Source: a virus
Lineage: Duplodnaviria; Heunggongvirae; Uroviricota; Caudoviricetes
Length of the DNA: 4,476 nt
Direction: 5' to 3' (one strand)
IMG/VR virus record: IMGVR_UViG_2627853967_000001
Shown here: positions 1,944 to 4,476 of the stretch, piece after piece
How the letters are laid out: every line of letters starts with the position of its first letter
Position numbering within the stretch: position 1 is the stretch's first letter
Position numbers and translations under genes: made by a program
The notes under the pieces: generated by a model
The model's input: only the letters and a program-made list of their open reading frames with translations
The model's database searches: none
What the model was told of the DNA's origin: nothing

Positions 1944-2013
1944 TGTTTTTTAACCTCAACTCAGATTAAAATTACTGCGAGTGATGAATAAATGTCCCAG
2001 GTTCTTCATTCAG

Positions 2014-2043
2014 GCCTGCACAGTGTGCAGGCTTTCTTTTTTT
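2014..2043 (+). terminator. Intrinsic-terminator-like hairpin plus T-tract, oriented for the + strand (antisense to the operon)
   Basis: GCCTGCACA-G-TGTGCAGGC (2014..2032, perfect 9-nt arms, GC-rich) is followed directly by TTTCTTTTTTT (2033..2043). On the minus strand the same hairpin is followed by CUGAAUGAAG, so it is not a terminator for the operon sense. Confidence 0.4.
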
Positions 2044-2784: not shown

Positions 2785-2844
2785 GGAAGCCTCCTTAATA
2801 AACAGTCTTACAAAGGAAATCTCAGGAAAGTTATTTAATACTTA

Positions 2845-2849
2845 GCAGC
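2845..2849. repeat. IS2 target-site duplication, GCAGC (copy at IRR side)
   Basis: The 5 bp immediately outside the IS2 terminus at 2850 are gcagc, identical to the 5 bp at 4181..4185 outside the other terminus. IS2 makes 5-bp duplications. Confidence 0.8.
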
Positions 2850-2890
2850 TGGATTTGCCCCTATATTTCCAGACATCTGTTATCACTTAA
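2850..2890 (-). repeat. IS2 right inverted repeat (IRR), terminus ...CA
   Basis: The 41 bp at the element end share GCCCC, TCCAGACA and TATCACTTA blocks with the left repeat. Confidence 0.7.
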
Positions 2891-3766
2891 CCCATTACAA
2901 GCCCGCTGCCGCAGATATTCCCGTGGCGAGCGATAACCCAGCGCACTATGCGGATGCCATTCGTTATAATGCTCGAACGCCTCTGCAAGGTTCTTTGCTG
3001 CCGTTAACCCGTCTGGTTTGGGCATGATACTGATGTAGTCACGCTTTATCGTTTTCACGAAGCTCTCTGCTATTCCGTTACTCTCCGGACTCCGCACCGC
3101 CGTGTTCTTCGGTTCAAGTCCCAACATCCGGGCGAACTGGCGTGTTTCATTAGCCCGGTAGCATGAACCATTATCCGTCAGCCACTCCACTGGAGACGAC
3201 GGAAGATCGTTGCCGAAGCGGCGTTCCACCGCTCCCAGCATGACGTCCTGTACTGTTTCACTGTTGAAGCCGCCGGTAGTCACCGCCCAGTGCAGTGCCT
3301 CACGATCACAGCAGTCCAGCGCGAACGTGACACGCAGTCTCTCTCCGTTATCACAGCAGAACTCGAACCCGTCAGAGCACCATCGCTGATTGCTTTCTTT
3401 CACGGCCACTCTGCCTGTATGTGCCCGTTTCGATGGCGGTACAGCAGGTTTTCGCTCAAGCAACAGCGCATTCTGGCGCATGAGCCGGTAAACACGTTTG
3501 GCATTGATCGCAGGCATACCATCAAGTTCTGCCTGTCTGCGAAGCAGCGCCCATACCCGACGATAACCATACGTGGGCAGCTCTCCGATAACATGGTGTA
3601 TACGGAGAAGCACATCCGTATCATCAGTGTGACGACTGCGGCGGCCATCCATCCAGTCATCGGTTCGTCTGAGAATGACGTGCAACTGCGCACGCGACAC
3701 CCGGAGACAACGGCTGACTAAGCTTACTCCCCATCCCCGGGCAATAAGGGCGCGTGCGCTATCCAC
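2861..3766 (-). CDS. insD: IS2 transposase OrfB (InsD), 301-aa frame; normally expressed as an InsCD fusion by -1 frameshifting
   Basis: The translation [23 protein letters not shown]...[29 protein letters not shown] matches IS2 InsD along its full length. It overlaps the insC 3' end in the -1 frame. Confidence 0.9.
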
Positions 3767-4134
3767 TTTTTTGCCCGTCCATATTCAACGGCTTCTTTGA
3801 GGAGTTCATTTTCCATCGTTTTCTTGCCGAGCAGGCGCTGGAGTTCTTTAATCTGCTTCATGGCGGCAGCAAGTTCAGAGGCAGGAACAACCTGTTCTCC
3901 GGCGGCCACAGCAGTAAGACTTCCTTCCTGGTATTGCTTACGCCAGAGAAATAACTGGCTGGCTGCTACACCATGTTGCCGGGCAACGAGGGAGACCGTC
4001 ATCCCCGGTTCAAAGCTCTGCTGAACAATTGCGATCTTTTCCTGTGTGGTACGCCGTCTGCGTTTCTCCGGCCCTAAGACATCAATAATCTGTTCTCCAA
4101 TGACAAGTCTAAAAACTGGTATTAAGACTATCAC
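3724..4134 (-). CDS. insC: IS2 OrfA (InsC) regulatory/DNA-binding protein; conserved 121-aa region is 3724..4089; the canonical start codon position reads ATT
   Basis: The translation ...[53 protein letters not shown]...LLPGDGE matches IS2 InsC. The codon where InsC normally begins (4089..4087) is ATT, not ATG, though it is still preceded by GGAGAACAG. The only in-frame NTG upstream is GTG at 4134, inside the left inverted repeat and with no Shine-Dalgarno. Confidence 0.8.
3766..3772 (-). other. Programmed -1 ribosomal frameshift heptamer A-AAA-AAG (insC to insD)
   Basis: Minus-strand sequence GCA AAA AAG TGG in the insC frame; a shift to -1 reads AAA AAA GTG GAT AGC, the start of the InsD frame. 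It sits exactly at the insC/insD overlap. Confidence 0.6.
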
Positions 4135-4364: not shown

Positions 4365-4476
4365 TAGACTGGCCCCCTGAATCTCCAGACAACCAGTATC
4401 ACTTATTTAAGTGATAGTCTTAATACCAGTTTTTAGACTTGTCATTGGAGAACAGATTATTGATGTCTTAGGGCCG
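4365..4476 (+). mobile_element. IS2, second copy, left end only (continues beyond window), + orientation
   Basis: 4365..4476 is identical to the reverse complement of 4069..4180 (IS2 left repeat and insC leader), starting TAGACTGGCCCCC. Confidence 0.9.
4411..4476 (+). CDS. insC: IS2 OrfA (InsC) of the second copy, 5' part only; canonical start position 4456..4458 reads ATT
   Basis: GGAGAACAG ATT ATT GAT GTC TTA GGG CCG encodes (I)IDVLGP. The in-frame GTG at 4411 is the only upstream NTG. Confidence 0.45.
   Translation, partial: MIVLIPVFRLVIGEQIIDVLGP

Follow-up and report, generated by a model that had tools for sequence, protein, structure and literature searches.

Closest in kind to the small RNA predicted here are OOP and sar, two cis-antisense RNAs from early operons of lambdoid phages. 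Lambda OOP RNA is a 77 nt transcript that runs from the promoter pO to the terminator tO and is antisense to the end of cII, and the sar RNA of phage P22 is an antisense RNA of the arc-ant intercistronic region. Prophages also encode AgvB and AsxR, the anti-sRNAs of EHEC (Tree et al., 2014, PMC4104026), and the Pas sRNAs of EPEC, the genes for which are absent from K-12 (Zhu, Shabalina and Storz, 2026, preprint). Here we describe a hairpin in the spacer between racC and recE of Rac-type prophages. Taken as a whole, it is best explained as a Rho-independent terminator that forms the 3' end of a short, constitutive and unannotated antisense RNA, an explanation that we consider probable.

The DNA analysed, which we refer to as the window, is a stretch of 4,476 nt that represents a decayed, Shigella flexneri-like segment of a Rac-type prophage. 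It is 99.9% identical to Shigella flexneri SFBU1023 loci and related records, which have the same IS arrangement. Its prophage genes, recE, racC, ydaE and kilR, all lie on the minus strand; the first-pass annotation of the window had placed every gene there, which is incorrect for the transposase ORF of an IS3-family element at 28–471, as this is on the plus strand. From the list of open reading frames, racC (annotated as such in K-12) occupies 2043–2318 on the minus strand, with 91 codons and a stop, and its 91 aa product is 96–100% identical at nearly all of the 90 loci compared. The annotated recE gene occupies 519–1943 on the same strand; the IS3-family element cuts it short after 474 codons, near position 526, with homology to intact recE loci starting at 527–529. 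The operon has been dismantled by IS elements, which account for positions 1–526, 2785–4134 and 4365–4476. Of these, an IS2 located 77 nt upstream of kilR parts the genes from their promoter and from the region of K-12 KilS, and an inverted second IS2 end (4365–4476) is absent from the closest relatives (L004 and L015). The predicted RNA module of the spacer has stayed intact despite the truncation of recE and the separation of the operon from its promoter by the IS elements.

The stem-loop spans 2012–2034 on the plus strand, and was identified from folds, scans, shuffles and conserved pairing. Its core, GCCTGCAC-AGT-GTGCAGGC at 2014–2032, is a perfect stem of 8 bp with six G-C pairs and a 3-nt loop, and it is lengthened to ten pairs by G2013·U2033 and A2012-U2034. 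A tract read directly from the sequence, TTTCTTTTTTT, follows at 2033–2043; its first two T can also take part in pairing at the base of the stem, and its last T is shared with the racC stop codon, as the first letter of tca (2043–2045 on the plus strand, which is TGA on the minus strand). The U tract is present on the plus strand only, and the minus strand reads CUGAAUGAAG after the stem. The GC-rich stem of 8–9 bp and the 11-nt T-rich tract on one strand that were described in the first-pass annotation are therefore both confirmed. The 30-nt segment folds with −14.4 kcal/mol on the plus strand (z = −4.4, with none of 200 shuffles as good) and with −13.4 kcal/mol on the minus strand (z = −4.0). 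Since both folds are stable, the stem forms on both strands, and the folding check that had been suggested for this hairpin came out positive.

That the stem is nearly as stable on the minus strand fits the view that it acts within the operon mRNA, either as a stem-loop that shields kilR-ydaE-racC from 3' exonucleases or as a processing or translation-coupling signal for recE. The hairpin also forms independently in the fold of the 117-nt spacer region, and it is found directly after racC in every variant. Against a role in the mRNA, the conserved U tract is on the opposite strand, and a distance of approximately 57 nt separates the hairpin from the recE Shine-Dalgarno sequence, which has a local hairpin of its own. 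The stem had been thought to lie just upstream of the recE ribosome-binding site in the operon mRNA; it does form on that strand, but its position is right after the racC stop codon, approximately 57 nt upstream of the Shine-Dalgarno, and so it cannot be described as just upstream.

A scan with a terminator consensus ranked the hairpin as the strongest terminator-like site of the window. The total number of weak terminator-like sites in the window, six, is not above the shuffle expectation of 4.5 ± 2.3. When a stricter test was applied, calling for an uninterrupted stem of 8 bp or more that contains 5 or more G-C pairs, a loop of 3–8 nt and, within the 11 bases that follow, 8 or more T, the hairpin was the one site found in the window, and none was found in 300 dinucleotide-preserving shuffles. 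Intrinsic terminators are characterised by a G+C-rich stem of approximately 5–14 bp with a short loop, by a U-rich tract right after the stem, and by an in vivo 3' end inside that tract; the window hairpin has the stem and the tract (UUUCUUUUUUU on the plus strand), and the in vivo 3' end is that of the K-12 orthologue. A Rfam search of the whole window returned nothing above the gathering threshold. The best matches, to OmrA-B (20.1 bits against a threshold of 40, E = 1.9) and to a betaproteobacterial toxic sRNA (17.8 bits), have scores that are driven by the terminator shape.

In 1.76 Mb of prophage DNA the hairpin is present as a single copy per locus and always in the racC-recE spacer, and it is therefore not a dispersed repeat. 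Assignment to a REP- or BIME-like repeat hairpin, or to an mRNA 3' stabiliser, was rejected on the grounds that there is one copy per locus and that the asymmetry of pairing between the strands favours the non-coding strand.

The orthologous hairpin of E. coli K-12 MG1655 occupies the same place in a diverged allele, AGCCTGCG-CCATA-CGCAGGCT followed by ATTTCTTTCA. The Term-seq data of Adams et al. (2021, PMC7815308) list, in Supplementary file 1, a 3' end at MG1655 position 1417486 on the plus strand, classed there as 'antisense' to racC. In the entries of that file the site occurs three times, once per condition sheet, with average read counts of 185,664 on the first sheet (LB OD 0.4) and 146,140 on another of the three (PMC7815308). 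To place the end, the printed string was calibrated on the sgrS row and then compared with the MG1655 genome. The K-12 RNA ends in ...AGGCUAUUUCU, which is 6 nt past the stem, 2 nt before the racC stop codon, and inside the tract that matches the T tract of the window.

Term-seq counts are not absolute abundances, and they were compared within the plus strand only because the minus strand values, as listed, appear to be on a higher scale. Among approximately 100 plus strand entries of the table taken for comparison, the count at 1417486 exceeds that of every non-tRNA entry and is surpassed only by the tRNAs aspV and valV; for reference, sokC is listed at 66,697 and sgrS at 6,222 (PMC7815308). 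That it stands above all of these non-tRNA entries suggests a dedicated promoter and a stable product, as opposed to a background of antisense transcription. The same table lists two further strong 3' ends in Rac, at MG1655 1419679 (minus) and 1420148 (minus) (locus L218), of which one is classed as an 'orphan' between ydaG and racR and the other lies inside racR. The first sheet (LB OD 0.4) lists no 3' end for RalA, and none on the plus strand between 1411575 and 1417486.

The text of Adams et al. (2021, PMC7815308) does not discuss the site at 1417486, and their Supplementary file 2 lists no Rho-termination region near 14173xx–14174xx, an absence that is weak evidence. In our literature searches no antisense RNA or terminator at racC-recE was found. 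In the RefSeq record of MG1655, annotation within Rac includes ralA and kilS, and no RNA between recE and racC. To our knowledge, an RNA at this position has remained unannotated in spite of two decades of small RNA screens in K-12.

A plus strand 3' end is thus present at the K-12 orthologue in all three Term-seq conditions, and the end at 1417486 contradicts, for this orthologue, the absence of plus strand 3' ends that would have spoken against the first-pass reading. The direct evidence for the 3' end belongs to the K-12 allele and not to the Shigella-like allele of the window, and we infer by analogy that the window allele terminates like that of K-12. Taking the structure and the mapped end together, we are confident that the hairpin and T tract would work as a terminator on the plus strand. 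The mapped end also argues against a role in the operon mRNA, as it is on the plus strand and comes from a strain in which the operon is repressed.

Of the three readings put forward for the hairpin in the first-pass annotation, the best fit is that of an unannotated antisense RNA ending here. The K-12 3' end supports this reading, but the RNA is predicted to lie opposite the recE leader and spacer, and not the recE ORF as had been supposed. A second reading, that the hairpin stops read-out from the IS3-family element, survives as a side effect and not as the reason for the existence of the hairpin, because the racC-recE junction is shared by 2340 of 5426 complete E. coli genomes. K-12 is among them and lacks an IS at this position.

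To examine conservation of the hairpin, 216 loci that have the conserved recE leader block (matched as an exact 32-nt pattern) were collected. Their spacers comprise 29 distinct variants that fall into two alleles, type A, which is that of the window, and type B, which is that of K-12, and both alleles were found with both recE N-terminal types. In an alignment of 23 distinct rows, 96.5% of the cells of the 10-pair helix are paired. Changes on both sides affect three pairs, with A-U becoming U-A at the stem base, A-U becoming G-C, and a change of the loop-closing pair; neither the observed pairing score nor the observed covariation score was equalled by any of 500 shuffles, although the number of independent covariation events is small because there are essentially two deep lineages. 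The two alleles, AGCCUGCG-CCAUA-CGCAGGCU in K-12 and GCCUGCAC-AGU-GUGCAGGC in the window, accordingly differ by compensatory changes.

More informative than this covariation is that the pairing differs between the strands, with 222 of 230 cells paired on the plus strand and 211 of 230 on the minus strand. Four of the five single-sided stem changes, at sites 57/65, 58/64 and 51/71, give G·U on the plus strand and C·A mismatches on the minus strand, and the C to U change at pair 57/65 arose in both alleles. The one counter-example to this asymmetry is at the loop-closing pair. The stem base of type A is likewise G·U on the plus strand but C·A on the minus strand, and a T-rich tail is present on the plus side of every variant (TTTCTTTTTT(T), ATTTCTTT or CTTTTTCCCATT), whereas the minus side is never U-rich. 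The mismatches on the minus strand argue further against a function in the operon mRNA, a possibility that we regard as improbable. This is the weakest of the three first-pass readings, because the Shine-Dalgarno is approximately 57 nt away and because four of the five single-sided changes pair on the plus strand only.

The loop of the terminator (window 2022–2024) is found in both orientations within each allele. On the plus strand, type B loci have CCATA (125 loci) or TATGG (9 loci), and type A loci have AGT (40 loci) or ACT (7 loci); the members of each pair are exact reverse complements, which is the signature of loop inversion by template switching at a quasi-palindrome.

Such a signature speaks for a purely DNA-level element without a role as RNA, either a palindrome bound by a protein or a junction between phage modules that arose by recombination or mosaicism. 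The spacer does lie between two blocks that reassort, since both of its alleles occur with both recE N-terminal types. A protein-binding site, however, would have no need of a T tract on one side, nor would it tolerate changes to the stem that preserve nothing but the pairing; an RNA 3' end is found exactly where an intrinsic terminator predicts it, and the point of reassortment is an invariant 32-nt block and not the hairpin. We therefore consider a role at the level of DNA alone to be very remote.

This 32-nt block (1941–1972), which is the junction at which the spacer alleles and the recE N-terminal types reassort, shows almost no variation in any of the racC-linked loci that were recovered without use of that pattern. 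It contains the recE Shine-Dalgarno sequence, GAGG at 1957–1954, and overlaps a hairpin of the recE leader mRNA, UUUUAAUCU-GAGUUG-AGGUUAAAA at 1950–1974 on the minus strand, which was seen in the fold of 1944–2060 and buries part of the Shine-Dalgarno. The recE leader has in addition a weak Rfam match to the HtrA thermometer (E = 4.6).

Upstream of the terminator, the plus strand carries a promoter-like site, TTGTTT-N18-TAAAAT at 1943–1972, with a predicted start near 1979. Its −35 hexamer, TTGTTT, overlaps the recE start codon on the opposite strand and its −10 hexamer, TAAAAT, is at 1967–1972, in DNA that also encodes part of the recE leader hairpin. Scored with an approximate sigma-70 matrix of our own making, it is the top plus strand match of the whole window, with 11.3 bits against a 99.9th percentile of 6.6. 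With the same approximate matrix, the corresponding site of K-12 is the top match within the 800 nt upstream of the hairpin, and a syntenic site of the Shigella Stx phage POCJ13, TTGTAT-N18-TAGAAT, is also the top match. The candidate promoter has a weak −35 (TTGTTT) and an 18-nt spacer, and it was not called by a stricter consensus scan because the −35 hexamer matches at 3 of 6 bases only. Conservation of the promoter block is by itself no argument for a promoter, because the recE ribosome-binding site and leader hairpin share this DNA. The SMRT-Cappable-seq tables have no racC or recE entry.

A transcript from this site would comprise approximately 62–63 nt (1979–2041, plus strand), its 5' end being given by the promoter-like site and its 3' end by analogy with K-12. 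With a start approximately 7 nt past the −10 hexamer, the predicted lengths are approximately 65 nt for K-12 and 75 nt for POCJ13. The first part of the RNA is predicted to form a 5' stem-loop at 1979–2011 (GAGUGA.GAAU...GUUC.UCAUUC) that stacks directly on the terminator, and the predicted fold of the whole (1979–2041) has −24.5 kcal/mol (z = −3.9). The same layout of two hairpins is predicted for the RNAs of K-12 (z = −4.8) and POCJ13 (z = −3.1). An Hfq-dependent trans-acting sRNA would be expected to have a 3' tail of six or more U and, ahead of the terminator, a single-stranded A/U-rich site. In the predicted RNAs of the window and K-12 there is no linker between the 5' hairpin and the terminator, and the tails differ, with the window allele having a long U tail and the K-12 RNA ending in AUUUCU. 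By position, the predicted RNA lies inside the 99-nt racC-recE spacer and is fully complementary to the operon transcript; it starts approximately 22 nt upstream of the recE Shine-Dalgarno and so leaves it uncovered. For the 5' hairpin we make no claim of covariation between alleles, because the MAFFT alignment of the alleles is out of register there; within type A, two changes in this hairpin give G·U on the plus strand and two break the stem.

We judge it probable that a dedicated short antisense RNA is made from a candidate promoter of its own. A small protein encoded on the plus strand was considered and rejected: in K-12 an ORF of nine codons (MILPDTHCS) ends just before the hairpin, but it is not conserved, the window having no equivalent and its own ORFs crossing the terminator. 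Recovery with Hfq or in chimeras, as is expected of an Hfq-dependent trans-acting sRNA, was not seen in the tables examined. Neither the RIL-seq-derived tables of Bar et al. (2021) nor the Hfq CLASH tables contain an RNA named for racC or the spacer, and the only related entry in them is one cyaR-recE chimera.

Antisense terminators are also found with recE in other contexts. In POCJ13 and in 76 E. coli genomes, including that of the O104:H4 strain 2011C-3493, a recE homologue is preceded by an unrelated spacer with a plus strand terminator of its own, AGTCCGGTAGC-CTGC-GCTGCCGGATT followed by TTTTATTTCA, with 11 pairs according to the scan. This terminator adjoins the stop codon of the upstream gene, which is a different one here, and no terminator-like site of the locus ranks higher. 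In POCJ13 and the O104:H4 2011C-3493 prophage (L093 1594–1702; L216; L217), promoter and terminator together form a predicted unit of approximately 75 nt. Its loop region, AGCCTGCGCT, and the 5' arm of the Rac hairpin of K-12 have 8 nt in common, a match that may be a trace of common ancestry. No such hairpin was found in recE contexts without racC (type C) or in the Qin-like context of ydfD and an exonuclease gene, and these contexts have no good −10 hexamer either. A further context without racC (type D, L288 1075–1175) has CGGCTGG-N8-CCAGCCG followed by GTATTTCGTTATT on the antisense strand; it was not counted as support, as the hairpin overlaps the last codons of an ORF of 62 codons and its tail is weak.

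A different reading of the same element is that it is only an insulator, with the plus strand terminator blocking pervasive or accidental antisense transcription into racC, ydaE and kilR, and the RNA being a functionless by-product. Such transcription could come from spurious promoters in the AT-rich prophage DNA, from the promoter-like region of the recE ribosome-binding site, or, in the window, from IS3-family read-out, and the Term-seq 3' end is also compatible with this reading. The promoter-like site overlaps the AT-rich region of recE initiation, and so could itself be an unavoidable by-product; the IS3-family element of the window is aimed at the hairpin from a distance of 1.5 kb; and the Hfq interaction tables provide no partners in trans. 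The operon has, moreover, other terminator-like hairpins on the antisense plus strand. One of these lies inside kilR at 2617–2636 (CATGCAGTCAGAAATGCATG followed by TTTTTGTAGT), and POCJ13 has the same kilR stem and tail with a different loop (L093 2229–2248, plus strand), although conservation here may reflect the coding sequence.

Set against this, the 3' end count is above that of every non-tRNA plus strand entry compared in the Term-seq table, a compact two-hairpin transcript is predicted in three unrelated spacer sequences, and the hairpin element is long older than the IS insertion. The height of the Term-seq peak and the compactness of the predicted fold argue against an element that only insulates, and we regard that explanation as rather unlikely, although it is the main alternative.

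Under the antisense RNA explanation, transcription would start approximately 7 nt past TAAAAT (1967–1972), from a promoter with its −35 over the recE start codon, and would proceed against the early-left operon through the 5' stem-loop and then the terminator, to end 2–5 nt before the racC stop codon. The RNA would be encoded wholly within the racC-recE spacer of Rac-type prophages. It would pair with the spacer of the kilR-ydaE-racC-recE transcript in the manner of lambda OOP, and the duplex would be cut or destabilised by an activity of the RNase III type. As a result, expression of recE-recT would be uncoupled from that of racC and its output lowered relative to racC; head-on promoter activity may contribute transcriptional interference. 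Direct occlusion of translation is unlikely, because the predicted RNA leaves the recE Shine-Dalgarno uncovered. An OOP-like regulatory role, which is suggested by analogy, is put forward tentatively.

The racC and recE genes were reported as a linked pair with respect to retron toxin-antitoxin systems, the toxin being blocked by RacC and the defence being triggered by RecE (Bobonis et al., preprint). It is possible, though doubtful at present, that a regulatory antisense RNA abundant in lysogens sets the ratio of RacC to RecE, or that alleles A and B represent specificity types directed at the early-left transcripts of superinfecting Rac-like phages; the tie between the antisense RNA and the retron-linked racC/recE pair is speculation. 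A constitutive antisense RNA could explain unequal expression of the linked racC and recE genes, or could account for a dampening by resident prophages of early genes that belong to incoming relatives. RecE is the exonuclease used in recombineering, and if the RNA is real, the well-studied cryptic prophage of K-12 would harbour an abundant, unnamed small RNA between recE and racC. If the regulatory role is also true, there would be an OOP-like control point, missed in K-12, in the recombination module of approximately 40% of E. coli genomes. Should the element do no more than insulate, it would be an ordinary feature, yet a clean case of a phage operon that has retained a terminator on its non-coding strand.

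Comparison with described RNAs places the prediction among the small RNAs of lambdoid prophages. AgvB, AsxR and the Pas sRNAs resemble the predicted RNA in being very short (51–60 nt) prophage RNAs with an intrinsic terminator, conserved lambdoid positions and allelic bodies. However, their genes belong to the late region, where they lie downstream of Q/PR' or close to the lysis genes, and the RNAs are Hfq-binding and trans-acting, whereas the predicted RNA belongs to the early-left recombination region and has no Hfq-linked interactions in the tables examined. Identity with a Pas sRNA or an anti-sRNA of the AgvB/AsxR type was accordingly rejected, as those RNAs are of the late region and Pas is absent from K-12. 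RalA and KilS are, like the predicted RNA, small RNAs of the same cryptic prophage, and RalA is also on the plus strand opposite early-left genes; in contrast to the predicted RNA, RalA (179 nt, over ralR/rcbA) and KilS (98 nt, upstream of kilR) are annotated, lie elsewhere and have no sequence relationship to it.

The sar RNA of P22 shares with the predicted RNA its antisense orientation, a length of approximately 68 nt or less, a location in an intercistronic spacer, a promoter at the start of the downstream gene and a terminator beside the end of the upstream gene. It differs in that translation is blocked by sar, which covers the ribosome-binding site of ant, whereas the predicted RNA leaves the recE Shine-Dalgarno free. 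Like OOP, the predicted RNA (approximately 62–65 nt) is short, has its own (here predicted) promoter within a lambdoid early operon and is transcribed counter to that operon; each finishes at an intrinsic terminator, overlaps the 3' end of one cistron or the spacer that follows it, and is made in the lysogen. The two have no sequence similarity, and while OOP overlaps the coding region of its target, the predicted RNA ends 2–5 nt short of the racC coding region. OOP acts in the rightward operon, at cII-O, and the predicted RNA would lie in the leftward (pL-type) operon, at racC-recE; if real, it would thus represent something new, an RNA of the OOP/sar type in the early-left recombination module.
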